Assembly: GCA_963846685.1 (NCBI GenBank)
Contig: CAWJWY010000002.1
Span: 1,924,023-1,988,022 of the forward strand
Direction of reading: 5' to 3'
Length of the DNA stretch: 64,000 bases
DNA from: an uncultured Acidobacteriota bacterium
Lineage (GTDB): Bacteria; Acidobacteriota; Vicinamibacteria; Vicinamibacterales; UBA2999
The translations under genes and the position numbers were made by a program. A model generated the notes under the pieces. That model was not told the DNA's origin. It saw only the letters and a program-made list of their open reading frames with translations, and searched no databases. How positions within the stretch are numbered: the first letter of the stretch is position 1; every line of letters starts with the position of its first letter. This document shows, one piece after another, positions 12,593 through 61,237 of this stretch.

Positions 12593-12618
12593 TCTCTCCA
12601 CGAATGTGGTGGCTCGGC

Positions 12619-32633: not shown

Positions 32634-32861
32634 GCCGTTCGTCTCCATTCGCCGCCTGGGGTGTGGCGCCGCGGTCTGTGCACAGTTCGGCGCGAGCGTG
32701 CGCGGATTATTAGCCGAGTTCGCGGTTGCCGGCAAATACAACCTGTTAGCTGCAGGCGCAGGGCACGCGCGGGGGCTTCTCCGGCTACGGCTTCTCCCGT
32801 CCCCGCTTGTGAAGTACCGTCACATCAGGCCGTCGATGCCGGGTCCGCTGCGCGGCACCCG

Positions 32862-33600: not shown

Positions 33601-33858
33601 GCGTGCTGCGCGGAACCGCGGTCTACTGCTGCGGCACTGGGCGGACCCTACTGCGGCAGACGCGGCAACTTTGGTGGGACTTGATGACCGTCAAGAGCTG
33701 GCTCGAACACGCTATCCAGGACGCCGAACGCCGCGGCCTGCCTGGCCTCAAATCGCTGCTCGAGACGCTCGCCCGCTCGACCTCGGCGCTGCGCAGCGCC
33801 GACTGGAACAGCGATGCCGCGTCTGAACTCGCCGACCGCGCCCCGCGACGGCCGATCA

Positions 33859-40928: not shown

Positions 40929-41338
40929 TCAGCAGACGAAAACGCGCAGCTCGATGCGGGTCGATGGGTTATGGCGAGGGGTGACGGTGAAGAGGAAGCG
41001 CGTGCCGTCGGCGACGCCGGCAGGCACGCTGACCTGGAGCTGGTGGCGCAAGAGCTCGACGCCAGAGCCGGCGCAGCGGCCGCACGGTTCGGTCCAGCTC
41101 TCGCCGCGGCCGCCGCAGCCGCGGCATGTGCAACGCACGGGAACGTCGAGCGGCACGGTGACCCCGGTGACGTGCCTCGTGCCGCGACAGCGTCATCACG
41201 GTACTGAGCGGCGCCTGCCGCTCTTCGGCGAGGAACGCGCTGCGGATCCGATCGATCGCCGGCGCGACGCAGGGGAAGTCTACGATGACGTCGTCGGCGA
41301 AAAAGATCGCGTCGTGGCGGTCGTTTTCACCCGACATG
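40929..41338 (-). pseudogene. Possible frameshifted gene with DnaJ-type CxxCxGxG zinc-finger/C-terminal-like segment
   Basis: CTCRGCGGRGESWTEPCGRCAGSG in the 40929..41156 frame; an N-terminal MSGENDRHDAIFFADDVIVDF segment lies in another frame; weak. Confidence 0.25.
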
Positions 41339-41559
41339 ACTGCGACCGAATCGCCACCGAACGGACGGAACGTGTTCCCGCGCATGACACTGCAGCTACG
41401 ATAGGGATCGCCGGAGGAGAAGTCAATGGTCCCGGGCACACCGCAGACCAGGGCGACCCGATCTCGTGAATGGGTGTGCCCGGCGTGCGATTTACTTCGA
41501 GTACTTCGAGGAAGCGGAAGATTGAGGAAGCCGGGGGGAGGTCACCGGACGCGCGCGAC

Positions 41560-41811
41560 TTAGCGCGCGCCGAGCGTCAACAGGAGTTCCTTGCGGATCC
41601 CCTCATCCATGTCTTCGAAGTTCAGTGCCGTCTCGCACTCGTCACACAACACTTCGAGTACCGCCGGACGGCCCTCTTCGGACACTTCCACGCGAGCGTC
41701 TTCGAGGTGGACGACGTGCATCTGCAGCGTCTTCACTAGAAAATTCTGATCGTTCCCGCAGCTGGGGCAGGTTAGCGCCACGCGCGTCTCCTCTTTCGTC
41801 GTCAACGGCAA
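41560..41811 (-). CDS. Small zinc-ribbon protein (CxxC...CxxC), hypothetical
   Basis: CPSCGN...CDEC pairs in an 83-aa ORF. Confidence 0.35.
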   Translation of the reverse strand: MPLTTKEETRVALTCPSCGNDQNFLVKTLQMHVVHLEDARVEVSEEGRPAVLEVLCDECETALNFEDMDEGIRKELLLTLGAR

Positions 41812-42264
41812 CTCCTTACCGGGTATGGCTTGGCACCGGCGAAACCGCGCCGTGCAACCAGAAGTTTGATTTTATGGGATGCCTCCTGCAGGAGCAATGC
41901 AGAAATGGCCAAAATCGCTGAAAGCTGGACTGCTTAGACCAGCGACTCCCCCGTCTCAAGGATCATCGAGTCGGGCACACCCAGCCGCATGACCTCCCCC
42001 GTACGGTGACGGGTGAACACGCAATGCGGGCCTTTGGCTTCAACGAACTCCACCTCGACGACGGTGGGCCGGGCCTGGTAGACACCCGTGACGCAGCCAC
42101 ACGGCATCGTGTCCAGCCCGAGGAGTGTCATCGCCGCCGCGCGCTGCCGGCTGCCGGGCGCTGGAATGTGCATGTATCTGGTTAGACCGCGGTGAGCGGC
42201 CGGCGGTTCCTGTAAAAATGCAGGCGACGCATTTTCCGCGGTGGCGGCGTGCCGTGCCGCCACG

Positions 42265-45861: not shown

Positions 45862-48832
45862 CGCCGACGTAGTCCTTGCGGCAGACGACAGAGTAGGCGC
45901 AGTATCGGCACCGCATCGCGTCGTGCGGCCGCGGCGGGAACGCGCCGCCGCCGATGCCATCGAGCACGCCGAGCAGACGCTCCCGCGCATCGTCAAGGAC
46001 CGCCGTCGCGTCGGTGGCGCCGGCCTTGACGACCGGAACGAGCGAGCGCTTGCCGGCGAATGCGACGTAGGCGGCCTCGTCTACCGTCCACGATGCGCCG
46101 TCCCGCTCCTCCAGTCGCTCCTTCGCACACAGCGCGTAGATCGGCACCTGCAGCGCTCTCCGGGTGTTCGGCGCCATGCCCGACTTGTAGTCGATGACCC
46201 GCAGGCGATTGCCAGCCAGCAGATCGATGCGATCGGCGACGCCCTTCAACGCCACAGTCGCGCCGCCCTCGATCCCGAGCGAGAACTCGCCTTCCAGGCG
46301 GTACTCGAGCCAGCGCTCGGTCACTTCGGCAGGGCGGGACGCTTCGAGGCCGAGCACCACGTCGACGATGCCGACGGAGATGGCGGAGCCGAAGAGCCGC
46401 GTCCGCTCGAGGCCGGCGTCGGCGTCGGGCAGGCGCGACAACAGCGGCTCGGCGACCGCGGCAAACAGCGTGCGGGCGCGGTCGACCTGGTCCGAGGTGA
46501 TGGTGCCGTGACCGGCGGCGTCCCATGCCGCAAAGAACTGCTGGAACACCTCGTGGATGAAGCGGCCGCGCGCCCGTGGCGACAGCCCGGTTTCGTCTTC
46601 GACCTGCTCCTCCAGCCGCAGCACGTCGGCGGCGAAGAACTTGAACGGGCAGTCCTGGTAGCGTTCGAGAGCACTCAGCGACAATGCCGCCGGCGGCGGT
46701 GGCGTCGTCGCGCCGTGGTAGCGCGGCGCATCGAGCGGCGGCGCCGCAACGCGAAACGCCGCCCACTCCCGCGTCAGCGCCGGCAGCACCGCGGCGTCCA
46801 GGATCGTCGCGGTCAGCGCCTCGAAGTCGAAGACCGCGACGTCCGGCTCCTGCTCGACACATCGGTCTGGCGCCGCAATGTCGAGTTCGTCGAGCAGTGG
46901 CGACGGCCCGACGATCGAGTCCGCTTCCAGGCTGAAACTGGAGACCGCCAGCCGTTGTCGCGGCAAACGCAGGAGATCGGTGAACGCCGCCCGGGCGCCA
47001 TCGATGCGCCCGGCTTCGGCTGGCCAGCCGAGCTCACGCAGCACGCCGGCCGAATAGAAGATGCTGCGGCGCGGGCGCGCCGGCCACTCGCCGTCGATCA
47101 GTCCTGCAAGCTGGATCTCCTCGAACTCGCCAAACCGGGCGCTGTCCGCGTCGACCAGGTGCACGCCGGCGTCGCCGGTACGCGGCGCAAAGGTGTGTCC
47201 CTCGATCCAGCGGCGGACGAGGGCCGCGACCTCGTCGAACGGCAACGGCGTGCTGTCGAAGCGGCGATACGCGTCACGCAGCCCCGCGAGCGTGCCGAGC
47301 ACGGCGCTGCGGGCGCGCAGTTGGCGCGTGCGCCCGTCCTCGTCCGGACCAGGAAGGTTCTCGTGCCGAGTCAGAAATTGCGTGAGGACAGTGAGGTGTT
47401 CCGCCACCGTGCCGTCGCGGCGGAGCGGCGCCAGGCTGCGGGCGACGTGCAGGAGCGCTTCACCGGCGCGGAGTGCGCGCTCGAGCCGGCCGCGCGACGG
47501 TGCCGCCGCGCGCCAGCTGTCCAGCAGCCGCTCGAGCGCGTCGGCATCGCCAAGATACCCGGCTTCGCCGAGCGCACGATCGAGCGCCGCCACATCGCCG
47601 GCGCCGAACGGCCGCGGCTCGCCATCGCCACCGATCCGGAAGTGAGGCGACCGCAGCAGCGCAATCGCCGGGGCGCGGGCAAAGTCGCCGGTCACCGCCG
47701 AGCACACCAGGTCGAGCGCGGCGGCATAAGGCTCCGCGGCCAACGGCAGCGCGTCGAACATCTGGCACGGGATGCCGCCCGAGCGCAGCACCTCGCGTGC
47801 GACATACACATACGGCAGCGGCTGGTGCACCACCAAGGCGATGCGGTCGAGCGACGTCACGTTGCGCTCCCGCACCGCCGCCTTGACCCGGCGCGCAAAA
47901 CCGCCGATCTCCTCTTCGCGGTCACGACTGACGTGGACGAGTGGCGCGCTGCCCTCGCCGTCGCGACGGCCGGGCGGCGGCACGACCAGCACCGGCAGCC
48001 AGCTGTCGGGTGCGTCGACGCGCACCTCCTCGATGCCTGGCAGCACCTGGTGCATGCGCTCGTGCAACGCACCGGCGAGTACCCGATCGGTCACGACGAC
48101 GTCGAGACGGGCCAACCCGGGGACTCGCGCGAGTAGATCCCAGTCCGCAGGGTAGAGACCGTGCGGATCGAATGCGCGATCGCCAACGGCAAGGACGACG
48201 TGCGTGACCGGGTTCGCCGCAGGCTGCTGTAACAACCGCCGGCGCAGTTCGTGGTCGTCGAGGCCGGCGGCAGCGCAGCGCAGCTCGAAGTCGCGATAGG
48301 CGGCGACGAGGAAGCGGGTCTGCCGCACGAGCCGCTCCGCGCCGCGGTCGTAGGCGGCGCCAGGCTCCAGCTTGTCGAGCGCGCGCCGCTCGAAGGCGTC
48401 GATGTCGTTCTGATTCCAGCGGAGCGTGTCGTAGAAGCGCAGGATCTCCGCAATCAGGCCGGGGCGCAGCCGGAATGGCGGGTCGAAGCCGGCATCGCGG
48501 GCGGCGCGGCAGGCGACGCCCAGGAGCACTTCGCGCTCCGCGTCCGTCAGCACTGGACGGCCCACGTCGAGCCGGTCAGCGAGCCGCGTCACCAGCTCCG
48601 CAGGGGTGATGAGGTCTGGCAGCAGCATGGCGCCGGAGGAGCACGCCGAGGCGTGGAATGCCTGGTCTTCGAGCGTGCGCAGGAGGTGCGCCGCCGCCGC
48701 CCTCGTCGGCACGACGATGATGCGGTTGCGCGCGTCGAGCGGCGTGCCCGTACCCGCCAGGTCGACCAGCGCGCGGCGAAAGGCGCGCAGGTCGGCGGTC
48801 CGCACCAGCTGCGTGGTGCGCGGCGTAATCAC
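45854..48832 (-). CDS. addB: AddB/AdnB-like helicase-nuclease subunit (PD-(D/E)XK with C-terminal Cys cluster)
   Basis: 992 aa; C-terminal CRYCAYSVVC Fe-S-type Cys cluster typical of AddB nuclease domains; tightly coupled to addA. Confidence 0.7.
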   Translation of the reverse strand: MITPRTTQLVRTADLRAFRRALVDLAGTGTPLDARNRIIVVPTRAAAAHLLRTLEDQAFHASACSSGAMLLPDLITPAELVTRLADRLDVGRPVLTDAEREVLLGVACRAARDAGFDPPFRLRPGLIAEILRFYDTLRWNQNDIDAFERRALDKLEPGAAYDRGAERLVRQTRFLVAAYRDFELRCAAAGLDDHELRRRLLQQPAANPVTHVVLAVGDRAFDPHGLYPADWDLLARVPGLARLDVVVTDRVLAGALHERMHQVLPGIEEVRVDAPDSWLPVLVVPPPGRRDGEGSAPLVHVSRDREEEIGGFARRVKAAVRERNVTSLDRIALVVHQPLPYVYVAREVLRSGGIPCQMFDALPLAAEPYAAALDLVCSAVTGDFARAPAIALLRSPHFRIGGDGEPRPFGAGDVAALDRALGEAGYLGDADALERLLDSWRAAAPSRGRLERALRAGEALLHVARSLAPLRRDGTVAEHLTVLTQFLTRHENLPGPDEDGRTRQLRARSAVLGTLAGLRDAYRRFDSTPLPFDEVAALVRRWIEGHTFAPRTGDAGVHLVDADSARFGEFEEIQLAGLIDGEWPARPRRSIFYSAGVLRELGWPAEAGRIDGARAAFTDLLRLPRQRLAVSSFSLEADSIVGPSPLLDELDIAAPDRCVEQEPDVAVFDFEALTATILDAAVLPALTREWAAFRVAAPPLDAPRYHGATTPPPPAALSLSALERYQDCPFKFFAADVLRLEEQVEDETGLSPRARGRFIHEVFQQFFAAWDAAGHGTITSDQVDRARTLFAAVAEPLLSRLPDADAGLERTRLFGSAISVGIVDVVLGLEASRPAEVTERWLEYRLEGEFSLGIEGGATVALKGVADRIDLLAGNRLRVIDYKSGMAPNTRRALQVPIYALCAKERLEERDGASWTVDEAAYVAFAGKRSLVPVVKAGATDATAVLDDARERLLGVLDGIGGGAFPPRPHDAMRCRYCAYSVVCRKDYVGDE

Positions 48833-50208
48833 TGCAGTTGCGGCGGCTCGAGCAGCGTCCGCAATTCCTGTTGCGCGCGCGAGAGCATCAGCAGCGCTCC
48901 GGCGGCGGCCGACGACGCTTCCCAGGCGCGCGCAACGTTGCCGCTGGAGATGGCGTCGAACCGGCCGTTCGCGGCGCTTTCGGCAAAGCGCCAGGCACCG
49001 ATCAGCAGGTCGTGCGTCGTGCTCAGCTCGTCGGCGGCAGTGACGCGCTGCAGCCGATCCGCCCCGCCGGTGAGGCGCCGTCGCAATGCGATGAGGCGGT
49101 CGGGGTCTGGGCCGTCAAGCCGGCGGATGGCTTCGAGCAGTGGCTGCGCCTTGACGAGTTGCAGCAACTGCGACGAGATGCTGCGCTGGTAGTCACGGTA
49201 GATGTCACGACGGAGCAGCCACTGGTCGCGGCGCAGGCGCAGCTGCCGTGCCGCTTCCAGCTGCTGTTCGACCTGCGCGCGCAGAGCCTGGACTGCTTCC
49301 GGACGCTTGCCACCGAGTCGGGCATCCTCCTTCGGCAGCGCATCGAGAATGCGCTGCACGGTGCTGACGCGGGCGCCGCGGGACGCGCGCGCGGCCGCGT
49401 CGGACAGCCGGCGTGACAGCCGCGCGTAGCGCTGGTCGATGTCGGCTTCGGCCTTGATCTGCTCCTCGGCGGATCGACGCAGGTTGCGGGCGGTGTCGGC
49501 ATCGATGCCAGTGCCGGGTTCGGCCAGCATCACCAGGGCAGACTGGAGCAGCGCAACGCGTTCCGCCGGCCGCTCGACGCGGCCCGCCAGCGCGAATATC
49601 TGGTCCACCTGTTCGCGGGCAGCGGGCATGCCGCTCACCGGCTCGAGCGCGAGTGGCGGCACCGTGACCAGCGACAGCGCGAAGCCGGACGCGGCGTTCG
49701 TGTTGCGCAGCCCGGCGATCGCCTCGTCCAGCAAGCCGAGGATCTCCCGCACGTCATCCTGGCGATAGCCGTAGTGCTGCTGCGGCCACTCGGCCAGCGT
49801 CCGGCGCGCCGATTCCGCCACTTCCAGCGCGCGGGCGCGGTCGGTGGTCAACGCGATGTCGTTCAGTACGCTGGCGATCTCGTTGCTCAATTGCTGGAAG
49901 TCGGCTTCGCCGCGGGTCGCAGCGTAGCGCTGGTAGCGGGCCGAGTCGGCGTACTGCTCGGTGCGCGGCCAGTTCACCGTGTCCGCCGGGAGCGTGACCA
50001 GGTGCAGCCGGGGATCGTCGCCGGTGCCGCCGGCTGGCGCGGAGAAGATGACGCGGTCACCGACCCGGGCGTACTCGCCGTAGCTCACCACCGAGGTGCC
50101 GTCCATCAGGAAGATGCGGAAAAGCGTCGCCTCCGCCGCGGCGAGTGCAATCGCCGGCACGAGCATGCACATGCATGCGCCGAGAACGGTACGAACCCAG
50201 GTTGCCAT
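48829..50208 (-). CDS. Secreted hypothetical protein, helical and Arg-rich, translationally coupled upstream of addB
   Basis: Signal peptide MATWVRTVLGACMCMLVPAIALAAAEA at Met 50208; stop overlaps the addB start (ATGA-type 4-nt overlap). Confidence 0.5.
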   Translation of the reverse strand: MATWVRTVLGACMCMLVPAIALAAAEATLFRIFLMDGTSVVSYGEYARVGDRVIFSAPAGGTGDDPRLHLVTLPADTVNWPRTEQYADSARYQRYAATRGEADFQQLSNEIASVLNDIALTTDRARALEVAESARRTLAEWPQQHYGYRQDDVREILGLLDEAIAGLRNTNAASGFALSLVTVPPLALEPVSGMPAAREQVDQIFALAGRVERPAERVALLQSALVMLAEPGTGIDADTARNLRRSAEEQIKAEADIDQRYARLSRRLSDAAARASRGARVSTVQRILDALPKEDARLGGKRPEAVQALRAQVEQQLEAARQLRLRRDQWLLRRDIYRDYQRSISSQLLQLVKAQPLLEAIRRLDGPDPDRLIALRRRLTGGADRLQRVTAADELSTTHDLLIGAWRFAESAANGRFDAISSGNVARAWEASSAAAGALLMLSRAQQELRTLLEPPQLQ

Positions 50209-50875
50209 GCTGCCGAAGCTGACATTGTACCTCCCGCAAAATGGCCTTCCGGCCGTTGCCGGCGGCTGCTGTGGAAAACCTGTGGATGGTGCGTGCATAT
50301 CCTGTGGACAACCGGACACGGCAACTTTTTCTCACGCGCGATCGCCGCGCTTCACCGCCGATCAGCCCTGTGGATGCGGCCTTCGTCACCCGCTTCGCTT
50401 GATCGTGTCGACCAGGCGCGTAGAATCAACGCCGTTCGCCCCCGCTCCTCAACACACATCCACCGTGACCGTTCATCGCTTCGAAAAAACCATTGGCGGC
50501 CGCGCGTACCACATCGAGGTGACGCGGGTCAGTACCAGGTGGCGAGCCCAGTTGCGGCGCATGCCGGGGATGCCCACCGCCATGATGCCGTTCTACGGTC
50601 AGACGCCCGACGAGGCGGCCGAGCTGTTGACGGAATGGTTGACGCTGGCACATCGCCGCGTCGCCGCAGCTGCCGTGGCGAAAGCCCCGCTGCCGACCTG
50701 ACATCGGGTATCCGGGGGCTGCATCAGACTGCTGCATGCGCAGTGCTGCATGGACAGTGCTGCATGGAGAGTAGCGCCCATCGCTGACAGATCAGGTCAC
50801 AGCCGGCAGACCATCCCGCCGGGTTGCGCCCGTCTCTGCCGTGCGCTACGATTATGTGTTCAGCGAGTCGTGAAC

Positions 50876-50951
50876 GGGCCTGTAGCGCAGTTGGGAGCGC
50901 GCCTGAATGGCATTCAGGAGGTCACCGGTTCGATCCCGGTCAGGTCCACCA
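50876..50951 (+). tRNA. tRNA-Ala (anticodon GGC)
   Basis: Cloverleaf: acceptor GGGCCTG/CAGGTCC with G3:U70; D arm GCGC-AGTTGGGA-GCGC; anticodon stem CCTGA/TCAGG with loop ATGGCAT; T arm ACCGG-TTCGATC-CCGGT; encoded CCA. Confidence 0.85.
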
Positions 50952-51164
50952 ACCTTTCATTTCCATCCGTCAATCGGCCGCAAGTAGCTGAAGGCCGGTG
51001 CGGTTACGCGGGTTCCAACAAAGCCTTTTCCGTCGAACGCGATTCCGTCCGGAAAGAACAGTTGTTGGAACCGCTGCCGCTGTTCGAGCGACGCCTGCAC
51101 CCAGAGGTCGGCGGCGCGCGGCAGAACGCGTTCTGCGAACGCCAGGATGCCCTCTACGTCGAGT

Positions 51165-52434
51165 TCATCGAGCTGGCCGGAGTGACGGTCGATCCGGAGC
51201 GAGCGTGAGCTCCTCGCGCAGTTTCTCGGCGTGGCGGTCGTACGTCTCGATGTCGATCGAGCGCTCGAAGAGGAACGCTTCGTCCAGACGGTCCAGCTTG
51301 TCCTGGATCGCCTTCGCCGCTCGCTCGGCGTTCGCGAGCTCCTCGCGCACCGCCGCCTTCCGCGCCTTCCAGATCTGCAGCACGGATTCCTTGAGTAGCC
51401 GCATGTAGCCTGGCGTTGGCTGCAGCAGCGCCAGTTCGTCTGCGAACAGTCCTTCGAGTTTCGCCTTCGTCACGTTGACCGCGCGGCAGCCAGGGCGGCA
51501 GTGGTAGTACGCGTAGTACTCGCTTCGGCCCTTCGACCAGCTGCCGGTGAGGCCTCGACCACAGGACTCGCAGCGCACGAAGGCGCGCAGCGGGAAGTCC
51601 GGGTGCGCCCGCTGCTGTGGCGTGGTGCTCGGAACGTCGCCCGGACAGGACCGCCTGCACGCGGTAGAACAGGTCCTCGGAGATCAGCGGCTCGAAGTCG
51701 CCGCGTTTTCCGCGAACGCCGTACTCGGTGACGTCCACGATGCCGGCATAGAGCTGGTTCCGCAGCAGCACGCCGATCGCTTGCGATGTGAGCGGACGGC
51801 CGCGCCGGTTGGTCAAGCCCCAGGCTCTTGACTGCTTGAGGAGCTGTTGCTTGGTGAAGCGCCCGGTCGCGTACTCCTCGAATGCTCGCCGCACAAGCGG
51901 CGCCCGCTCAGGATCGGGCATCAGGCTCTTGCCCATCGCGCGCGGCGCGTTCAAGTAGCCGATCGGCGCCAGGAACACCCAGCGGCCGAGCTCCAGTGCC
52001 GCCTTCATGCCGGCGCGCGTCCGGTCTGACCGACAGTCGTTGTCGAACTGCGCGAATGCGGCGAGCACGCCCTCCATCAGCTTGCCGGTGGACGTGTCGT
52101 CGATCGGCTCCGTCGCCGACCGCAGCGAGATGCCGAGCGACTGCAGGTGCGAGCGGAGCGCGAAGTGGTCGTACTTGTCGCGCGCGAAGCGCGTCAGGTT
52201 GAACACGACCACGAAGTGGACGCGGCCCTTGTTCAGCCGACAGAACGTGAGCAGGTTCTGAAGCTGGCTGCGATCCGTGGTCTTGGCGCTCTCGCCTTCC
52301 TCGTGGAAGCGTTCGAGGATCTCGTAGCCCTGGCGGCGGCAGTACTCCTCGCAGGCGCGAAGCTGCGTCGGCAGGCTGAGATTCTCGGTCTGCTCCTTCG
52401 TGCTGACGCGAACGTAGATCACCGCGCCGACCAT
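51165..52434 (-). pseudogene. Large serine recombinase (resolvase-domain integrase) split by a frameshift near 51600
   Basis: N-terminus MVGAVIYVRVSTKEQ (catalytic Ser), recombinase domain; zinc-ribbon/coiled-coil C-terminus CESCGRGLTG...YYAYYHCRPGC in the 51165..51578 frame. Confidence 0.7.
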
Positions 52435-52493
52435 GGTCGGCAGCGTAGATCCATTCGCCGGCTCGGGCAAGCTGCGTTTGCGAGGCACGATGC

Positions 52494-52679
52494 CTACTCG
52501 GAAACGCGACACTGCTCCTGGTACATCTCGACCACGATGCACGCCATCGTCTCTGCGTGCCGGCGGATGTCCTCGATGTCCTGATCGGTCATCGATTCCG
52601 CGTCCTCGCCGAGCAGTTCCCGACAGCGCGCGATCGAAATCGGCTCCGGCCTCGGATCCGCATGTTCGACGTACTCCAT
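52494..52679 (-). CDS. Small acidic hypothetical protein upstream of the recombinase (possible RDF/regulator)
   Basis: 61-aa ORF starting MEYVEHADPRPEPISIARCRELL; AGGGG 9 nt upstream. Confidence 0.25.
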   Translation of the reverse strand: MEYVEHADPRPEPISIARCRELLGEDAESMTDQDIEDIRRHAETMACIVVEMYQEQCRVSE

Positions 52680-53716
52680 GGGCACCCCTGCGAACTCGCT
52701 GCAGACGTTCGTGATGCGGTGGAGTGCGCTCGAAGCGCGCCGACCTGGTGCCGGCGCGCCGAGACGATGAGCGTGGATGTGGCGTGACGCCGACACCGAA
52801 GCGCGTGACTTGAAGTCGAACGCGCTGATCGCACGAGACGTGCGCGATCAATCGACTGGTTGTTGAAGGAGCTGACAGCGTTGCTCTGAGAGCGTTGGCT
52901 ACAGCGCTCCGCGTCTGGCAGGACTGCGGAGGGGTGCGCGATGGCACCGACGAGATCTTCACGATACGACTGCCGGCGCATCCGGTCAACGCCGAAATGA
53001 GGACGAGCTTCGTCGGCCATCACATAAGTGCGACCTTCGAGCTGCGCGCAGGCGTCGTCAAGGCCGAAGCCCGCAGGGTCGAGCGCAGCGAGAGCCTTGA
53101 CGGCGCCGAGCACAGCTCGATCCTGGTCATGTGATGGCCGATGTTCTGGGGAGAATGGTCGTGGAGAAGTGCGGGAAATTCTGGAGAAGATCTGCGCCGC
53201 GTACGCGCGTGACAACGCACGTGCAACCAGTGTCAGAAGAGCAGCTCAGAGATTCATCGAGTTGTTCTCCAGATTGCGGGTCGAATACCTTCTGCGCAAG
53301 CGGGTGGACTTTCGGCGCCGACACGGACACCGACAGCCTGTTCAGGCGGGCGTGAGCGACCACGTCCGTGGCCGCAGGCTTGGCAGGCCAAGCGGCCATT
53401 TCGGGTGGTCGCTCACGCCACGGGATTGCTGTTGGCGACCGCTTCGGCACTGGCGCCACCAGGCGGGCGGCAGAGTGCGCCGCCCGAGACGACAGGTCGT
53501 AACCTGCGCGGCGACCTGCAGTTGTCGCTTGCTCTCGTCGCGCGCGAGTGTCGCCGTCTTGTCGCGAGGACGAGTCCTCGAGCCGGATGCCGTCCAGGGG
53601 GAACACCTCGCGCGAGCCCCTGTCCCCCCTGTGTTCCCCTCATGTTCCCCCAACGAGGCGGATTAGCAGCGACCAGCCTCGGATGAGTGGTCGCTGCAAT
53701 TCGTGGTGCCGGTCGG

Positions 53717-54838
53717 TCACGTCTTCTGCTTCGCGATCCTCAGAACGGGGTTTGCCGCCGCTCCGAACCTTCGGCCGGGGACCTCGTCGGCGGTGATGGC
53801 GCCTTCCTTTTTCAGTTCGCGAACCAGCTCGTTGACGTGCTTCGGCAACCACCACTCAGGCCTGACGGCGGCGTGCAGATCCTGCCATCGCTCAGGACGA
53901 CGCGAGAGCCGATTCAGTATCCAATCGCGCAGAGGACGAAGGTCCGGCTCGGGCTTGATCAGGAACTGCTGATCAGGGTTGTCAGAGCGGCGGACCATGA
54001 AGCCGCCCGCCGGCGACACTGACCACGCGCATTCCTTCATCAGGTCGCGCCCGTCATTCGAGTTCGTGAGGTGCAGCAGGACGTACCGAGTCGCTTGTCC
54101 ACCCGTGACCATTCGCACCGCCGACGTCCACCACTTCGCGCCAATGCCTCGCGCCATGAGCGGAATCGCGCGGTCGAGACGCTCGTCCATGCCGTCGCCA
54201 ACAACCTCGGTACGCCAAGAACCGGAACCGAAGATCTCGTCGAGCGTTTGCGCATGCGGTGTGCCAGGGGCTGGCCGCTGCTGAACCAGCATGTCCAGCT
54301 CGCGCCACATCACGTTGATGAACAGCTCGACTCGACCAGCTTTCATCAGATCGCCAAGCAGGCCCGCAGGGATCTTGAAACCGTACGGGTCGACAAAGAG
54401 GAACGCGGGTGCCATCTGAGCACGGTCGCGGCGGAGTTCGTTGAGGATGGCGGACAGACGCTCGAATGCGTCACCCTCGCTCGTCTCCACGTTGACCCGA
54501 GCCGGAAATGGTTTGAGCTGAGAGAGCTCCGCTTCGAGCGCCGCGAGATTCGCGGGATCTCGCTCGATGAACAGGAAATTGAACTCGGAGGCGTTCAGCA
54601 GCTTGTCGCGGTAGGAGTGGCGCAGCAGCGTCTGAAGCGCGAGGACCGGTGACCCCGGGTCGCCGCTCTCGTAGCGCCCTCGACCAGCGTGGGTATCGAC
54701 GTACAGGACGCGCCGAGCCCAGGTACCGAGCTTCGGGTACCAGCCGTTCAAGTAGCAGCGAATCAGTTCGTGCTTGACGTGCTGAAACGGTCCGTACTGC
54801 TCCCAATAGGCGGGATTCGGGTCCGATCGCCGGGTCAT
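53717..54838 (-). CDS. tcmP: Three-Cys-motif partner protein TcmP (TIGR04474-like; methyltransferase-fold)
   Basis: N-terminus HELIRCYLNGWYPKLG...YVDTHAGRGRYESGDPGSPVLAL (xDxFAGxG-like); immediately downstream of and 4-nt overlapping a Gp37/Gp68 gene, the defining context of this family. Confidence 0.6.
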   Translation of the reverse strand: MTRRSDPNPAYWEQYGPFQHVKHELIRCYLNGWYPKLGTWARRVLYVDTHAGRGRYESGDPGSPVLALQTLLRHSYRDKLLNASEFNFLFIERDPANLAALEAELSQLKPFPARVNVETSEGDAFERLSAILNELRRDRAQMAPAFLFVDPYGFKIPAGLLGDLMKAGRVELFINVMWRELDMLVQQRPAPGTPHAQTLDEIFGSGSWRTEVVGDGMDERLDRAIPLMARGIGAKWWTSAVRMVTGGQATRYVLLHLTNSNDGRDLMKECAWSVSPAGGFMVRRSDNPDQQFLIKPEPDLRPLRDWILNRLSRRPERWQDLHAAVRPEWWLPKHVNELVRELKKEGAITADEVPGRRFGAAANPVLRIAKQKT

Positions 54839-55611
54839 GCATTGCTCGCTGCGAGAACGCGATGGAAGGCGAGCGGAAACTCATCGTACGTGCGGCCGTC
54901 GAGCGTCCGTCCGGTTTCGTGCTTCCGTGTGCCGCCCCACTGCTTGAAGAAGAAGGGCACCCGCTGCGCGCGGCATTGACGACGGATGTTGACGACCCAA
55001 TCTCGAAGCATCGGACGGGCGCGCGGGCCGCTCTCTCCGCCGACGATGACCCAGTCGATCTTGCGCAGGTCGAGAGGCCCGAGGTCGGCGAGCAGGGGTT
55101 CTACCGAGAGGAATCGAAGGCGTGCCGGCGTGTCCTGGAGCGACCGAATGCGAGGCAGACCGTAACGTCGATCCTCGACGCTGACACCGAAGGCGACGTG
55201 TTCGAGATCGGCCATCCACCGCAACTCACCCAGCAGCAGTTCGCGCAGTCGCTCGTCTCGCTTAGTGAGGACCTGAAACAGGTGCCAGTCAGCTTGTCGC
55301 ATGACCTCTCCAACGCGACCGATGTAGTCGGCTGGAACGTCATCGTGAAAGAGGTCGCTCATCGAGTTGACGAAGATCTTCCGCGGGCGTCGCCAGTGCA
55401 GCGGTTGCTCAAGCTTTTCGGGCACCAGTCGGAGGTCGAAGCCCTGCTCGAAGGGGTGTCCAGGCACGCCGCGGAAGCGCTCAGAGAACACCTCCGCGTA
55501 GCAGAATTTGCAGCCCGGGCTCACCTTCGTGCAGCCGCGGACCGGGTTCCACGTCGCGTCCGTCCACTCAATCGCCGAGCGGTCGCTCATGGTGGACCAG
55601 TTTACGTCCAT
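54835..55611 (-). CDS. Phage Gp37/Gp68 family protein (DUF5131)
   Basis: IEWTDATWNPVRGCTKVSPGCKFCYAE three-Cys N-terminal signature; 258 aa. Confidence 0.8.
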   Translation of the reverse strand: MDVNWSTMSDRSAIEWTDATWNPVRGCTKVSPGCKFCYAEVFSERFRGVPGHPFEQGFDLRLVPEKLEQPLHWRRPRKIFVNSMSDLFHDDVPADYIGRVGEVMRQADWHLFQVLTKRDERLRELLLGELRWMADLEHVAFGVSVEDRRYGLPRIRSLQDTPARLRFLSVEPLLADLGPLDLRKIDWVIVGGESGPRARPMLRDWVVNIRRQCRAQRVPFFFKQWGGTRKHETGRTLDGRTYDEFPLAFHRVLAASNA

Positions 55612-55729
55612 TCGGTGACAGGGCAGGTCACACGGAACAATCGCGAAGATTTCCAGTTCACTTGACTATTCGTTTCAAGTTTATTCATAGTTTGTGAATA
55701 TTACGGCGGACACGTTCAAGAGACGAGCT

Positions 55730-56813
55730 TATGAAGAACTCCTTGGTGGTCTTCGTCGTTCTCCTGTTTGTGGCGCATGCGTCGGCTGAATGCGAAGCAG
55801 GCACGTACCGCCCAGAACCGCAACGCCTTCGGACCCAATCTCCACGATTCTCGACGCGTTCAAAACCCACGAGATCGTGACGCTGACGGATCCACACGGC
55901 AATATTCAAGTTCAGGCGTTTCATCCTGGAGCTTGATTCGCGACCCACGATTTCGCCAGGCGGTGAACGATATCGTGATCGAGACGGCGAGCGCGCGGTA
56001 CCAGGACGCGATTGATCGCTATGTCCGCGGTGACGACGTCGAGAGAGCCGTCTTACGGAGAGCCTGGGAGGATCACACCGTCGCGAATAGTCTGGGGGTT
56101 CAAGCGGAAGAACTGATCCAAGCCGTCCGTACGGTCAATGCTTCAGCGCCGAGGAAACGGGGAGGCTACGTATCATTGCTGGTGACCCGCCGATCGATTG
56201 GGGCAACATCACTCGCCGCAGGACGGCAGTCGGTGGACAGAGCTTCGCGACAGCTACCCGGCTGATCTCATTCGACGGCAGGTTCTCGATCGTGGCCGCC
56301 GCGCGCTTGTCGTCTACGGACAGGGTCATTTCCAGCGCCGTCAGATTGTCGCCAACTACGACATGTCCACGTGGCAGGCGCAGACTGTCGTCAGTCTGCT
56401 CGAGCGGGACCACGGCGCGCATGTCTTCAACGTTTGGACGCTGGTGGACAAGAACGTCGAGACTTCCAGCGGGCGTCACATCGTGGCGCGTCCCGAGTCT
56501 TGCGGCCCTGCGAGGCACAACGCTCGGGGCCAGAGACTTCGGACTGTACAACCGCGGCTTAGGTGACGGAACCCGTTTTGGCGTGAAGGGCGGTCAGCTG
56601 GTCCCGGTCCCACAGGCTGAATGGAAGACGATGCGAATGGAGGATCAGTTCGATGCTCTCCTATACCTCGGGCCACCCACATCGATGACCATCGCCTCAG
56701 TGCCGGCCGCACTTTGCGAGGACGCGGACTTCGTGAAGCGTCGGGTGGAGAGGCTTAGCCGCTTTGGACCTCCGATCGAGGTTCAGAACTTCAAGAAGGC
56801 CTGTGGTCTTTGA
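55730..56813 (+). pseudogene. Secreted protein gene broken by >=3 frameshifts (function unknown)
   Basis: Starts with signal peptide MKNSLVVFVVLLFVAHASA; coding potential then passes through the 55768, 56198 and 56292 frames. Confidence 0.45.
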
Positions 56814-56860
56814 TCCGTCAGGTAGGAACGACGTCTTGAACCGGACTGGGTAGCCCGACT

Positions 56861-57191
56861 GTGCCACGCGACTACTTGACCGACTTCCAGTTGATGCTGT
56901 TGCTCGCGATTCTGCGAGTAGGCGAAGAGGCGTATGGTGTGCCCATCGCGCGCGAGATCGAGGCCTCCGGTGAACGCACGGTGATGCTCGGGGCCGTCTA
57001 TACTGGCCTCGACCGGCTTGAAGCCAATGGATTGGTTTCATCAGCGTCGGCTCACCAACAGCCGAGCGGGGCGGTCGTGCGAAGAAGTACTTCCGTGTGA
57101 CGCCAGCTGGCCTGAAGGCGGTCCGGCAAGCCAAACGGGCATTTACACGGCTATGGTCTGGGGTGCCAGGCTTGGAAGGAGGACGCTCATG
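56861..57191 (+). pseudogene. PadR-family transcriptional regulator with a frameshift near 57050
   Basis: LLLAILRVGEEAYGVPIAREIE...VYTGLDRLEANGLVSS in one frame; PadR C-terminus AERGGRAKKYFRVTPAGLKAVRQAKRAF in the next. Confidence 0.55.
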
Positions 57192-57779
57192 AAAAAGACG
57201 CGTACACCTCTCCAGCTCGCCCTTCTTCCCTATCTTCTCGGCGATGATGAGCCACTCGTTGGGGATCTCGTCGAAGAGTGGCCTCGACGATCGACCGCCT
57301 GGTTCTGGCGTCAGGTCGTTTTTGCGGTGCTGGCCACGGCTGGGGCGACCGCATCGGCAGCATTGCGCGACCCGCAACGGCTGACCGGAGCGCTTGGGGC
57401 CACTGCGATCTTCCTCATTCTGAGTTTTCAGGTCGTCGTGGCTGGCAGCCTACTCGATGACCTGATTCGGCGGATCGACCGCACCCAGGTGACCCGAATC
57501 GATCACCCGGAGTGGCTGCTGTTTTTCGTCCTGTTGTCGCTCCCGGTAGCGTGGTTTATCGGGAGGGCAATCGGTGTCCTGCACCATCGTTCTCGTGCTG
57601 CGACAGTCGTAATTGCTGGCGCCGGTGCCGCCGTCGTCGGGGCGGTGACCGTCTCTGTATTGAGCGCGACTGATGCCTTCTTTCCATCAGCCGCCCAGCA
57701 AACCGCGGCGGGCATGGTGTTTGTGCTCGGGTTGCTGACCGGGAGCTCGAGCCGTTCTCCTCTCGATCGACAGGCCTGA
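57188..57779 (+). CDS. Membrane protein partner of PadR (hypothetical)
   Basis: ATG overlaps the padR stop (ATGA); 4-5 predicted TM helices. Confidence 0.45.
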
Positions 57780-57915
57780 TTCGGTCCCCGTCAGTCGTCA
57801 CGCGGACTGTATCAGCCCGCTCATGCGGTGCAGCCAGTTGAACACTTGGTTCCAACTGGCGATGTTCAGGTCCACCAACCTTCCCCTCTCTCCGCTCTCC
57901 TTCTAAAGGATTTCC

Positions 57916-58419
57916 TCAGAGAGACCCGGGGCGTTCTCGAGCGGTGTCGTCCGGCGTGAGCTCCTGCGACATGCGGCGGATCGCGCGGCGCTCCTCGCTG
58001 GAGATCCGACGACCCATCGCCGAGCGCGAGACTGACGCGATGCGCCGGCACGCGGTCAACAGCGGCCGCCACCGTACCAGGCGCTCGGCAGGCGACAAGG
58101 CGCCGAGCATGCCACGCAACGCCTGCCGGCTGTTCTCGAAGAAGCTGCGCGGCGGCCGCTTCGCCAGCAAGTCCAGTAACCGCTCGTATGCCGGGCCGCC
58201 GTCGATGCCCATCGCCACGGCCACCTCGATGATCGACAGCCGCTCGCCATCGGTCACATGACCGTCTGCCCACGCAATCTCCAGCAGTGGCGCCGTCGTC
58301 AACACGTCGACGGTCGCGGCCGAATAGCCGGCGCGGACCACGGCAGTCAGCGCGTCGGCGTCCGACACACCATACGCCGCGGCCATCCGCCGTCGCAACG
58401 CACCGAGTTCGCTCTGCAT
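57916..58419 (-). CDS. TerB-like (tellurite-resistance TerB/DjlA-N family) protein
   Basis: DGHVTDGERLSIIEVAVAMGIDGGPAYERLL TerB motif; GGAAGAGG SD before Met 58419; the longer 5' extension of the ORF is antisense to ychF and was discarded. Confidence 0.5.
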   Translation of the reverse strand: MQSELGALRRRMAAAYGVSDADALTAVVRAGYSAATVDVLTTAPLLEIAWADGHVTDGERLSIIEVAVAMGIDGGPAYERLLDLLAKRPPRSFFENSRQALRGMLGALSPAERLVRWRPLLTACRRIASVSRSAMGRRISSEERRAIRRMSQELTPDDTARERPGSL

Positions 58420-58654
58420 CTCGCCTCTTCCTGTGACCGACCGCCCGCCCTGGTTCATGTACCGCTCAGTGCGCCGCGCCGGCAAGACTCGTGCCTCGAC
58501 AGCGATTCGCCGGCATTGCTCCTTCAAGGGTGCCGCGCGGAAGTGCCCCTTTAGACCCTCCGGGCGACTGTGTGGTTTGCACCGGTCGTGACCGGCTTCG
58601 TTACGCTTCCTGGCCCGAAGGGGTCGCGGCGCCAATGCCGTACTATTGAGGGGA

Positions 58655-59758
58655 ATGCTCAGAGCAGGAATCGTCGGTCTCCCCAACGTCGGCAAGTCCA
58701 CCCTTTTCAACGCGGTGACGCGGACGCGCAAGGCGGAGGCGGCGAACTACCCGTTCTGCACCATCGATCCGAACGTCGGCATCGTCACCGTCCCGGATGC
58801 GCGTCTCTACGAGCTGCAGAAGATCGCGAAAAGCGCGCAGGTCATCCCGGCAGCGATCGAGTTCGTCGACATCGCCGGCCTGGTGAAGGGTGCAAGCCAG
58901 GGCGAGGGGCTCGGCAACAAGTTCCTGACCCACATACGCGAGGTCGACGCCATCGTGCAGGTCGTGCGCTGCTTCGAGGACGCGGACGTCCATCACGTCG
59001 CCGCGACCGTCGACCCGGTGCGCGACATCGAGATCATCAACACCGAGCTGATGCTCGCCGACCTCGATTCCGTGAAGAAGCGGCGGGAACGCATCGCCAA
59101 AGAGATCAAGCGCGGCGACAAGGCTGCGGCGGCGGAAGATGCCGTGCTGGAGAAGGTCGAAGCGGCGCTCGACTCCGGCAAGCCGGCGCTGACCGTCCCG
59201 CTGACGCCGGAGGAGCGCGCGCTGACGCGGCCGCTGTTCCTGCTGACGGACAAGCCGACTATTTTCGCGTGCAACGTGAAGGAAAACGATCTCGCGACCG
59301 CTGACAGCAATCCGCACGTCATGCGGGTGCGCGACTACGTGCAGACGCACCTGGCGTGCGAAGCGGTGGTGATCAGCGCCCAGATCGAAAGCGACCTCAT
59401 CGACCTGGAGCCGGATGAGGCGACCGCGTTTCTGCAGGACCTTGGTGTCCCGGAGAGCGGCATCGGCGCCCTGATCCGCTCGACCTACCACCTGCTCGGC
59501 CTGCAGACCTACTTCACAGCCGGCGAAAAGGAGGTCCGCGCCTGGACTATCCACCGCGGCGACACGGCACCGGTCGCCGCCGGGGTGATCCACTCGGATT
59601 TCGAACGCGGCTTCATCAAGGCCGAGACCGTCGCCTACGGCGATCTAGTCGCGTGCGGTTCGGTCGCCTCGGCCCGCGAGAAGGGCCTCTACCGCATCGA
59701 AGGCAAGGAGTACGTCGTCGCAGACGGCGACGTCCTCCTCTTCAAGTTCAACGTGTAG
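58655..59758 (+). CDS. ychF: Ribosome-binding ATPase YchF (Obg-family GTPase)
   Basis: [17 protein letters not shown]1 motif, TGS/YchF C-terminal domain; ATG 58655 (alternative TTG 58646). Confidence 0.85.
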
Positions 59759-59760
59759 GC

Positions 59761-60567
59761 CTACTTCTTCTTCTCCGCATAACCCGGTTCAGCCATGTCG
59801 CGATGCATCTCGGCCAGGACGCCCGAGGGCGTCACTGACGCGATCGCGGTCTGCAGCTTGTTCTGCCAGCCGCTGACGACGTCGCCATCCCCGCGAATCA
59901 TCGCGTCGAAGCCGGTGCGCGCCACGTCTGCCGGATCGTCCTTCTTGCCCTGCCCGACCTTGGTGTCGAGCATGTCGGCCCGCTCGAAAAACTCCGTCTC
60001 GGTTGCACCGGGCATCAGGCAGGTCACTGTGACGCCGCTGCCCTTGAGCTCGGCGCGCACGGCAAACGAGAACGAGTCGATGAACGCCTTCGTGCCGTTG
60101 TAGACCGCCTGGTAGGTGCCCGGCATGAAGCCGGCAATCGAGCCGGTCAACAGGATCCGCCCCTCGCCGCGTGCTCGCATGTCGCGGCCGACCTTCTGAA
60201 CCAGGTAGATCGTGCCGGTGATATTCGTGTCGATGACGTGGCGGACATCGCTGAAGTCCTGGTCGAGAAAACCCTTGCCGAGACCATGCCCGGCGTTGGC
60301 GAGCAGTGCGGCGACGGGCCGTCCAGCTATCGCCGCATACAGGCGATCAACCCCCGCCAGTTCGGCGAGATCGACTTCCACCGCCTCAACGGCGGCACCA
60401 AGGCCGCGGAACTGCTCCGCCGCGGTGTGGATCTTTGGCTGGTCTGCGGCGATGACCAGGTCGTAGCCCTCCGTCGCACAGATCTTCGCCAGCTCGTAGC
60501 CGATTCCGGCAGAGGCGCCCGTCACGACGGCGAGCGGCCGCCCGCCTGCCGAGTTCTTGTCAGTCAT
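59761..60567 (-). CDS. SDR-family short-chain dehydrogenase/reductase
   Basis: VVTGASAGIGYE cofactor motif, YxxxK (YNGTK) catalytic motif; start at Met 60567. Confidence 0.75.
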   Translation of the reverse strand: MTDKNSAGGRPLAVVTGASAGIGYELAKICATEGYDLVIAADQPKIHTAAEQFRGLGAAVEAVEVDLAELAGVDRLYAAIAGRPVAALLANAGHGLGKGFLDQDFSDVRHVIDTNITGTIYLVQKVGRDMRARGEGRILLTGSIAGFMPGTYQAVYNGTKAFIDSFSFAVRAELKGSGVTVTCLMPGATETEFFERADMLDTKVGQGKKDDPADVARTGFDAMIRGDGDVVSGWQNKLQTAIASVTPSGVLAEMHRDMAEPGYAEKKK

Positions 60568-60637
60568 TCGTTCTCCAGTGCGCAAGCCGCGCACCGGAGG
60601 CAACTGCAAGCGGGGTTCCGCGGATGACTGGCTGCGG

Positions 60638-61237
60638 TCAGGAATTGTGCAGCGCGTCGTAATCGGCGGGTGTGTCGACATCGATGATGCAGCCGGGATC
60701 GGCGACGTCGACGTTGAGCACCGCGTCGCCGCGCGCGTGCACGACGGCACGAGCCCCGCGATCGATCGGCGCATGCCGCAGCTCATCGAATACGACGCGG
60801 TCGAACAACACCGGATGTCCGAACCGCGCGCCGACCCGAGGACGGACGATGGGCGGCCGGCTCTGCCGCCAACTGCTGATCACCGAGCGGACAGTGGCAG
60901 GCGAGAGCATCGGCACGTCCACCAGGGTCATGACGATCGCTTCTGTCGCCGGCGTGATCGCCGCGTCCATGCCCGCCCACAACGACGAGAGCTGGCCGCG
61001 CTCGGGATCGGGGTTGCGAACGAAGCGCGGCAGTCGCGCCGGCGGATCCGATGCAACCGCCGCGCGGATCTCTTCGTCGCGACTACCCGTGACGACGACG
61101 ATGTCCTCGAGCCCGGCAGCCGCCATCGTGCCGACGATGCGCGCGATGAACGACCGCCCGTCACGGTCGTGCAGCAGTGCCTTCGGCGAACCCATCCGCG
61201 TCGATTCGCCTGCGGCCAGGATCAGCGTCGCGATCAC
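60638..61237 (-). CDS. MobA-like nucleotidyltransferase (NTP_transf_3 family; molybdenum-cofactor nucleotidyltransferase-like)
   Basis: LILAAGESTRMGSPKALL N-terminal signature. Confidence 0.6.
   Translation of the reverse strand: MIATLILAAGESTRMGSPKALLHDRDGRSFIARIVGTMAAAGLEDIVVVTGSRDEEIRAAVASDPPARLPRFVRNPDPERGQLSSLWAGMDAAITPATEAIVMTLVDVPMLSPATVRSVISSWRQSRPPIVRPRVGARFGHPVLFDRVVFDELRHAPIDRGARAVVHARGDAVLNVDVADPGCIIDVDTPADYDALHNS

Follow-up and report, generated by a model that had tools for sequence, protein, structure and literature searches.

A 6.9-kb island in a tRNA-Ala gene of an uncultured Acidobacteriota bacterium and its family of large serine recombinases, apparently directed to tRNA 3' ends

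Introduction

Which enzyme placed a 6.9-kb island into the 3' end of a tRNA gene, when the recombinase gene found at the tRNA is of the serine and not of the tyrosine type? This question is raised by a 64,000-nucleotide stretch of DNA (the window in what follows) from an uncultured Acidobacteriota bacterium, in which the gene of a large serine recombinase (LSR) lies directly beside a tRNA-Ala(GGC) gene and an exact copy of the tRNA 3' end reappears 6.9 kb away. A classic mark of tyrosine integrases is a 17-bp repeat of the tRNA 3' end: repeats of at least 17 bp at such places are typically made by that class, and LSRs need only a 2-bp overlap. A survey of 2020 found 44.5% of tyrosine-integrase elements in t(m)RNA sites against 14 of 297 serine-integrase elements (4.9%), cases that it called previously unreported and for which, few as they were, it asked for proof (PMC7192596). 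These figures bear out a remark in the original prediction for this DNA, made from its letters alone, that tRNA genes are targeted less commonly by LSRs than by tyrosine integrases. More recently, a 2026 survey of 430,134 proviruses reported that serine-integrase proviruses prefer coding sequences (PMC13626063).

Our analysis indicates that positions 50945 to 57877, both approximate, very probably make up a 6.93-kb integrative element, inserted into the 3' end of tRNA-Ala(GGC) by its LSR and no longer autonomous. The island is a real member of a family of tRNA-targeting LSR elements, and the copy in the window is probably immobilised.

Results

The island is bounded by a repeat of the tRNA 3' end

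The limits of the island are set by three features:

50876-50951, plus strand, tRNA-Ala(GGC), the integration target (ARAGORN; Rfam tRNA, 64 bits), its 3' half forming the B' half of the attachment site attB
50940-50956, plus strand, attL copy of the exact 17-bp repeat
57866-57882, plus strand, attR copy of the exact 17-bp repeat, right end of the island

This tRNA is the only one that ARAGORN found in the 64-kb window, and an Rfam search of the window at a permissive threshold returned nothing besides it; its sequence is identical to that of the unoccupied tRNA in a relative (contig L166). The repeated 17-mer, TCAGGTCCACCAACCTT, is made of the final 12 nt of the tRNA, with the encoded CCA included, and of the 5 nt downstream (ACCTT). 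Exactly two copies are present in the window, spaced by 6926 bp, while neither a search of the window with up to 2 mismatches nor 100 shuffles gave any further match, in agreement with the original prediction that the tRNA 3' end is repeated exactly at 57866. This direct repeat bounds the element, whose integrase gene is at the end nearest the tRNA. The element also differs from its flanks in composition as a tRNA-integrated genomic island does: GC content, about 0.70 on the left side of the tRNA, drops to 0.56-0.66 inside the island, and GC at third codon positions (GC3) is about 0.76 in the island genes versus 0.84-0.88 in the flanking genes.

The gene beside the tRNA encodes a large serine recombinase with three lesions

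The recombinase gene occupies the left end of the island:

50957-52488, minus strand, LSR pseudogene (body), with start GTG at 52488 or ATG at 52434 and stop TGA at 50957-50959

Its stop codon directly adjoins the attL repeat. Translation of the three minus-strand frames revealed one gene distributed over three frame segments, and alignment with five homologous DNAs (88-92% identical) located three 1-nt insertions, at about 51636, 51198 and 50969, none of them in a homopolymer. A serine recombinase adjacent to attL had been predicted together with one frameshift; the first part is right, and the single frameshift has to be replaced by three insertions. Because of these three single-base insertions relative to the five homologous DNAs, we read the gene of the window as a pseudogene and not as an intact, expressible gene.

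Once rejoined, the product has 493 aa and is 95% identical to the intact homologue P0001. Pfam matches were found for Resolvase (PF00239, 5.6e-34, residues 4-152, with the motif IYVRVSTKEQ), Recombinase (PF07508, 7.1e-10) and Zn_ribbon_recom (PF13408, 1.5e-6), all above the Pfam thresholds (for the last two, the gathering score), and the cysteine ligands of the zinc ribbon are invariant across 47 LSR homologues. An AlphaFold2 (AF2) model of homologue P0051 contains the catalytic, recombinase and zinc-ribbon parts plus a long coiled coil, with helices 357-404 and 411-433 following the ribbon strands at pLDDT values of about 76-91, so that a coiled-coil motif is predicted within the LSR zinc-ribbon domain. 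The window recombinase is, by its domains, an LSR of full architecture. Among solved structures, the closest are the A118 and TP901-1 integrases, both of them only weak matches, and the best match is to the A118 C-terminal domain (E about 2e-6).

The recombinase family is found at tRNA 3' ends

We asked whether the position beside a tRNA is peculiar to this locus. A protein search returned 1707 LSR homologues at E<=1e-20, of which the best, 95% identical, is the intact 505-aa protein P0001. In all, 82 loci were fetched and compared, namely the contig of P0001 (L081), a second contig (L082) and 80 metagenome loci (L083-L162), and a locus was counted as tRNA-adjacent when an ARAGORN tRNA on the opposite strand overlapped the 3' end of the LSR open reading frame (ORF). 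Results were as follows:

tRNA-Ala(GGC) adjacent: 31 of 82 loci, with LSR identity to P0001 of at least 76% in all but one
tRNA-Lys(CTT) adjacent: 12 of 82 loci, a clade with LSR identity to P0001 of 67-71%
tRNA-Glu(TTC) adjacent: 1 of 82 loci (L143), with LSR identity to P0001 of 69%

Three further contigs terminate inside the tRNA. The tRNA-Lys(CTT) loci (L135, L136, L142, L144, L146, L148, L149, L156-L158, L161 and L162) have the same arrangement. Moreover, among the 120 top-ranking database proteins the majority have the C-terminus ...VD[QL]TG[IVF]EPVTS, which is the antisense translation of the tRNA-Ala T-arm, and therefore those genes were called on integrated copies; other LSR proteins have endings antisense to other tRNAs. 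The recurrent overlap and the antisense-tRNA endings together imply that it is the family as a whole, and not this locus in particular, that lies beside tRNA 3' ends. We conclude from these loci that the LSR family appears to target tRNA genes, which is unusual for the enzyme class.

The LSR is also supported as the integrase of the island, because intact homologues hold the same head-to-tail arrangement at tRNA-Ala(GGC) in 31 independent loci and because the attP arm conserved in the family is found beside attR, on the inner side of the island, as detailed below.

In a separate group of loci (L096-L098, L109, L111, L112, L117, L118, L127, L131 and L151), the LSR is followed by 12-53 nt of tRNA 3' sequence and then by unrelated DNA. 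These short segments could reflect insertion at the distal attachment remnant of another island, or attP variants with longer tRNA pieces.

Repeat pairs of related islands suggest a crossover in the tRNA terminus

Complete islands with imperfect repeats are present in L081 (5.66 kb), L101 (6.7 kb), L121 (5.9 kb) and L157 (8.4 kb). In L081 the two repeats, 5.66 kb apart, read AAGGGTGGTGGACCAGA and AAGGTTGGTGGACCTGA. Repeat length ranges from 7 to 17 nt between islands, and the tRNA-Lys island L157 has a repeat of 29 nt that extends into the T-loop. All repeat pairs of the tRNA-Ala clade have in common the 7-nt TGGTGGA, complement of the terminal TCCACCA of the tRNA, with mismatches on both sides of it. 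Since the mismatches of the pairs in L081, L101 and L121 flank TGGTGGA, we place the crossover within TCCACCA, which would correspond to positions 50945-50951 of the window. The 17-bp identity in the window exceeds what the recombinase needs, as the core common to five complete islands is 7 nt. This can be explained considering that ACCT(T) also directly follows the tRNA at the unoccupied sites of L165 and L166, so that identity beyond the core would be native to the site.

These data bear on the idea that the LSR is a passenger and that the island was inserted by another enzyme, for instance a tyrosine integrase since lost, of which the long repeat at a tRNA 3' end could be taken as the trace. 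A repeat length that varies across islands is what is expected if homology is not required, and the native ACCT(T) at empty sites accounts for the extra identity. In addition, the island contains no tyrosine-recombinase ORF or Pfam match, and the juxtaposition of LSR and tRNA, with the LSR stop a few nt from the repeat, is kept in 31 loci whose cargo is unrelated. We consequently give almost no credence to a passenger LSR, and we retain the LSR as the probable integrase.

The attP arm continues the reading frame of the recombinase

At the opposite end of the island, just inside attR, we found one more feature related to the LSR:

57798-57866, minus strand, P' arm of attP, read as the detached last 22 codons of the LSR gene and their stop; translation NIASWNQVFNWLHRMSGLIQSA, then stop

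The arm, ..(A/C)AGCGCCAGTTGGAACC.., is common to the window (57798-57865), L081, L101 and L121, in each case just inside the far repeat; in all, homologous arms were found at 4 island ends besides that of the window. The same arm directly follows the LSR 3' end in 8 metagenome contigs (L091, L093, L100, L102, L107, L110, L125 and L133), and an attP-type junction is also present in one IMG/VR contig, L164. This junction between LSR 3' end and arm looks exactly like that expected for attP. At the attP-type junctions the LSR frame runs 22 codons past the core (..NSASWN.I..WL.........A, then stop), and in integrated islands this 22-codon peptide is encoded, in the same frame, by the arm at the far end; in the window, core plus tail read RLVDLNIASWNQVFNWLHRMSGLIQSA up to the stop, from 57881 down to 57798. 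Several tails end in -AA.

A coding tail is suggested by the kept position of its stop, by the greater variation of third codon positions and by conservation that goes past the half-site. Of 11 diverged sequences, 9 have their stop at exactly one and the same codon, written as TGA, TAG or TAA. Compared in pairs, the sequences differ by 0.43, 0.38 and 0.55 at codon positions 1, 2 and 3, respectively. Conserved residues, a second Trp-Leu and a terminal Ala, are still found at a distance of 33-70 nt from the core, past the typical 25 nt of an LSR half-site. Gene calls that include the tail are also found in the database (P0020, P0051 and P0103). With moderate confidence, integration would thus split the LSR gene in the tRNA-Ala clade; the split gene was seen in this clade only, as the tRNA-Lys island L157 is without the WN..WL tail.

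A different explanation is that the 22 codons past the core are not part of the recombinase, the conservation being that of DNA recognized at the P' half-site and the open frame being incidental in GC-rich DNA. In its favour, the best-conserved hexamer, TGGAAC (the W-N codons), lies about 15-20 nt from the core, at the place expected of an LSR half-site, and the absence of the tail from the tRNA-Lys clade would be easily understood, as would the integrated copies that are intact without it in hundreds of loci. When the P and P' arms were searched by eye for inverted symmetry, no convincing half-site motif was found. The stop, the distant conserved residues, the codon-position bias and the gene calls are all left aside by this explanation, which we consider possible but doubtful.

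Several results nevertheless count against the element as we describe it. AF2 predicted a helix for the tail at pLDDT below 50, which is uninformative, a terminal-overlap test for circular contigs was negative on 19 contigs, and the attP-type junctions (9 contigs) lie in longer linear contigs. A tandem array would be another explanation for such junctions, and no second LSR of the family was found within 10 kb of them.

Among these contigs, L091 and L093 (positions 10.6-15.9 kb) have the attP-type junction followed by a Ser/Thr kinase with TPR repeats and then a tRNA-Asn 5.2 kb away (L091), and L125 (positions 11.5-16.6 kb) has it followed by a C5 cytosine methylase and HATPase proteins. None of the three has a second family LSR, and their copies may be free, nested or rearranged.

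A model for integration and its possible effect on the recombinase

Keeping the split gene as our reading, integration can be pictured as follows. The attB site would consist of the tRNA T-arm, the 3' strand of the acceptor stem and about 20 nt downstream, and the LSR would insert the element by recombination between attP and attB at the extreme 3' end of the tRNA, where a crossover in the terminal TCCACCA would regenerate the tRNA. In the unintegrated form the LSR gene would end with the 22-residue tail (..SWN....WL.........A, then stop). After integration, the LSR body would be left at attL, reading into the antisense strand of the tRNA (...VD[QL]TGIEPVTS, then stop) and so acquiring a substitute end of 8 codons, while the native 22-codon tail would be moved to attR. 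Both the coding status of the tail and any function it may have are inferred.

One could go further and imagine integration as a switch acting on the LSR itself, the tailed free form and the tail-swapped integrated form differing in stability or directionality. The LSR of the free element would carry a 22-residue amphipathic tail, often ending in -AA, and that of the integrated element would end in the antisense-tRNA peptide; the two forms would then be integration-competent on one side and excision-competent or silent on the other. This proposal is speculative and we hold it to be unlikely. If true, it would represent a built-in control of directionality, independent of a recombination directionality factor (RDF), in a family of serine integrases that has specialised in tRNA genes.

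The same site is empty, decayed or occupied in relatives

The original prediction proposed looking for an empty tRNA-Ala site in related genomes. As an anchor for synteny we used the 496-aa gene left of the tRNA (48829-50319). Relatives with about 60% identity have their left-flank genes in the order of the window (ParA-like, then several small genes, UvrD-like, AddB-like, a 460-aa gene and finally tRNA-Ala(GGC)), and in L165 and L166 the genes NTP_transf_3, CSD, DUF218, ABC and PHP lie 3-4 kb past the tRNA, their counterpart in the window being at 60.6-64 kb. Neither of these two contigs, syntenic on both sides, has an LSR at its tRNA-Ala(GGC), and LSR-free sites of the kind proposed do exist. 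Because L165 and L166 keep the synteny on both sides without an LSR, the reading of the island as an insertion is supported.

The site is clean in L165, where the tRNA is followed by ACCTT-cgctcgcc. In L166 (9100-9230) a degenerate direct copy of the tRNA 3' end is found about 85 nt downstream of the tRNA. An inverted near-copy, AGGTTGGTTAGACCTGAAC, is also seen in L166 right after tRNA-Ala. The repeats of L166 look like scars of earlier insertions. A third syntenic relative, L163, contains fragments of a family LSR near tRNA-Ala (478-555 and 4708-5261), one covering residues 113-297 with a frameshift and the other residues 471-496 beside an attP-type junction, which we interpret as independent LSR decay at the same hotspot. 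Lastly, L104, L092, L116, L103 and L129 have a homologue of the left-flank gene together with an intact LSR at the tRNA. Considering that the site is empty in L165 and L166, decayed in L163 and occupied in these five contigs, tRNA-Ala appears to be a recurrent target whose state depends on the lineage.

Some observations make the case for an insertion less tight. The relatives with an empty site are not conspecific, as their flanking proteins are only about 60% identical, and the product of the 496-aa gene finds, apart from its own 100% match P0121, nothing closer than 73% identity. The exact 31-nt pattern of an empty junction had no match in metagenome contigs. In addition, the 2.9 kb right of attR are not syntenic with the relatives, so that the right boundary rests on the repeat and on the conserved P' arm. 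Between attR and the NTP_transf_3 block this part of the window holds:

57916 to about 58560, minus strand, short ORF
58655-59758, ychF
59761-60786, SDR gene

In the corresponding interval (window 57883-60786) the relatives carry unrelated genes, and the stretch from the tRNA to NTP_transf_3 differs in every genome compared, so that the whole interval behaves as a variable region. We also considered ychF as a synteny anchor and rejected it, since its best relatives (Vicinamibacterales, 82-87% identity) share ychF alone and have no tRNA-Ala nearby. In L081 (7755-9705) the NTP_transf_3-CSD-DUF218 genes are on the 5' side of tRNA-Ala, and they are on the 3' side in the window, L165 and L166; this suggests an inversion, between lineages, of the tRNA or of the gene cluster.

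A conserved backbone and a variable cargo

The elements of the family are mostly 5.6-8.4 kb long and consist of the LSR, a 61-aa ORF, a backbone of about 1 kb and a slot with variable cargo. In the window these parts, from the LSR towards attR, are:

52494-52679, minus strand, acidic 61-aa ORF just upstream of the LSR (translation), conserved in about 70 family loci, the tRNA-Lys clade included
52680-53660, conserved backbone (blastn/tblastx), kept in many loci in all frames with stop codons included
52895-53134, plus strand, small ORF in the backbone, divergent from the LSR operon and conserved in many members
53348-53362 and 53405-53419, 15/16-bp inverted repeat, GGCGTGAGCGACCAC and GTGGTCGCTCACGCC, about 42 nt apart
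53717-54838, minus strand, TcmP (three-Cys-motif partner), intact cargo (TIGR04474, 2.3e-44; PADLOC PDC-M30A/M41A)
54835-55611, minus strand, DUF5131/Gp37Gp68 three-Cys protein, intact cargo (PF07505, 9.7e-94; PDC-M30B/M41B, about 1e-101; phrog_2045)
55731-56813, plus strand, pseudogene of a secreted protein of a family of about 360 aa with signal peptide, in six frame segments (homologue P0241)
56862-57192, plus strand, padR pseudogene, frameshifted once at about codon 64 (the match to PadR PF03551, 1.4e-12, spans the shift; TIGR03433)
57189-57779, plus strand, intact 196-aa membrane-protein ORF overlapping the padR stop (ORF list; sub-threshold Pfam match)

This content is that of the original prediction, which had listed a small ORF upstream of the recombinase, a TcmP-Gp37/Gp68 pair, a multiply frameshifted gene for a secreted protein and a PadR-membrane-protein pair with a frameshifted padR, and all of them were recovered.

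The 61-aa ORF had no match in Pfam, NCBIfam, PADLOC or PHROGs and is a candidate for an accessory or directionality factor. The ORF at 52895-53134 keeps its stop in place (..SESLD.AEHSSILVM, then stop) and has a coding-like GC content of 0.65/0.49/0.81 at codon positions 1/2/3; it had no family match in the same four collections, and both small ORFs are candidate RDFs. The inverted repeat GGCGTGAGCGACCAC/GTGGTCGCTCACGCC is invariant across the tRNA-Ala, tRNA-Glu and tRNA-Lys clades, as seen in the window and in L088, L121, L086, L106, L092, L101, L098, L123, L081, L134, L113, L143, L094 and L135, with a variable inner stem. The repeat might bind a protein, act as an oriT-like site or be an RNA; neither it nor the backbone matched Rfam.

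The genes for TcmP and DUF5131 lie side by side on one strand, with a 4-nt overlap (54835-54838). TcmP has an 83% identical homologue (aa) in the island of L137, and a C-terminal remnant that is 95% identical is left in the island of L081. The two proteins match the A models (7.5e-21 and 1.5e-13) and B models (about 1e-101) of both PADLOC PDC-M30 and PDC-M41, whose A and B genes are likewise adjacent and which are themselves computational candidates only; the TcmP/DUF5131 pair is accordingly a candidate anti-phage defence system. No functional report, mechanism or protection phenotype for this pair was found in the literature, of which our coverage was incomplete.

The cargo varies between the islands of the family:

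Window and L137: TcmP/DUF5131 (the 95%-identical remnant being in L081)
L081: ParE toxin-antitoxin pair
L101: Ser/Thr kinase with PD40 propeller
L121: ankyrin-repeat protein
L121 and L137: DUF4258
L157: DUF6883/DUF4926
L125: C5 methylase and HATPase proteins

In those small islands that are complete, we saw no genes for replication, conjugation or virions.

Frameshifts are concentrated in the island

The 359-aa homologue P0241 of the secreted protein aligns to six consecutive segments, giving five shifts, four of -1 and one of +1. Together with three shifts in the LSR gene and one in padR, nine indels are found in about 5.6 kb of island coding sequence, and they spare TcmP, DUF5131, the 61-aa ORF and the membrane ORF. 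By the consistency of tblastx frames relative to L165, no frame change was detected in the ParA-like, UvrD-like, AddB-like and 496-aa genes (about 11 kb of the left flank), nor was any found in the right-flank genes compared (NTP_transf_3, DUF218, ABC and ychF). This distribution, nine shifts in the island versus none in the flanking genes compared, supports the suggestion of the original prediction that the density of frameshifts marks an immobilised element. We infer that the indels reflect biological decay of a domesticated island, of which the intact TcmP/DUF5131 pair would presumably be the part kept by selection.

Indel errors of long reads in a strain-variable region could mimic decay, and this weighs against our interpretation. 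The island would then be real and not decayed, the nine frameshifts being assembly or base-calling errors in a strain-variable region of lower coverage, and the copy would be intact and active. The contig that encodes the flanking protein P0121 (100% identical) is 3.3 Mb long, a length characteristic of assemblies from long reads; inside their frame segments the broken genes are free of in-frame stops and are 55-95% identical to homologues; and both attachment repeats and the tail exon are perfectly preserved. On the other hand, the LSR indels avoid homopolymers, indels of +1 and -1 are mixed, the flanking genes compared are free of frame changes, and the indels avoid the four intact ORFs (2.7 kb) as expected under selection and not for random error. 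The syntenic relative L163 also has a fragmentary LSR at the site. We judge an intact and active copy to be distinctly unlikely and keep decay as our interpretation.

A 7-state hidden Markov model of GC by codon position was also tried for counting frameshifts and was discarded, being so noisy that it broke known intact ORFs. With a crude codon-position GC model, four other blocks of the window (590-4489, 11395-12674, 31230-33859 and 41176-42334) are without a strong host GC3 signal despite long ORFs; they may be other acquired regions.

Discussion

The copy in the window is an ordinary decayed island, and what is new is its family of LSRs, directed to tRNA 3' ends and, in the tRNA-Ala clade, probably with attP inside their own gene. 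No description of this LSR family, of an LSR gene spanning attP or of a direct precedent among tRNA-targeting LSRs was found in the literature, which we covered incompletely.

The enzyme shares with the large serine integrases of phages and of integrative and conjugative elements (phiC31, Bxb1, A118/LI, TP901-1, SPbeta SprA, CcrAB) the three-part architecture and the YxRxSTxxQ motif with the catalytic serine, as well as the position of the gene at the element end beside the attachment site and a probably short attP/attB core. It differs from them in its very distant sequence, in a target that is a tRNA 3' end and not a protein-coding gene, in an attP that would lie inside the recombinase ORF, and in belonging to small islands without phage or conjugation genes. 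With the tRNA islands of tyrosine integrases (P4-like elements, Islander/TIGER catalogue), our islands have in common the repeat of the tRNA 3' end, the integrase at the tRNA, the regeneration of the tRNA, a cargo that varies and in which genes of defence and of toxin-antitoxin systems occur, and sites that can be tandem or scarred; unlike those, they use a serine enzyme, with a crossover that we place at the CCA end and a core down to 7 nt.

For an attachment site inside an integrase gene, the only precedent found is that of the archaeal "suicidal" SSV-type tyrosine integrases, where it forms part of a compact int-att module said to be present only in archaea (PMC8371274). In both cases the site lies within the recombinase ORF and integration would partition the gene, here in the tRNA-Ala clade only. 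The archaeal enzymes are tyrosine recombinases whose gene is destroyed on integration, whereas the bacterial serine enzyme described here would lose only 22 codons and gain 8 antisense-tRNA codons, its ORF remaining long and intact in most loci. A further parallel is the integration-dependent immunity of mycobacteriophages, in which attP lies inside the repressor gene and C-terminal degradation tags are involved: there also integration alters the C-terminus of a phage-encoded regulator or recombination protein, and the -AA tails superficially resemble ssrA-like tags. In that system, however, it is the repressor gene that is split, and the integrase belongs to the tyrosine class.

In conclusion, the window illustrates domestication, in which the mobility gene is lost and a candidate defence gene pair is kept. 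The family to which the island belongs is big, undescribed in the literature that we covered, and from soil bacteria. Its abundance, with tRNA-Ala, tRNA-Lys and tRNA-Glu clades in dozens of independent loci, challenges the view that serine integrases avoid tRNA genes. An attP inside the LSR gene, for which we found no report in the searchable literature, is a possible handle on the control of directionality. LSRs are valued tools of genome engineering whose main limit is the small number of natural target sites, and LSRs with an attB that is a conserved tRNA 3' end could give landing sites across many bacteria.

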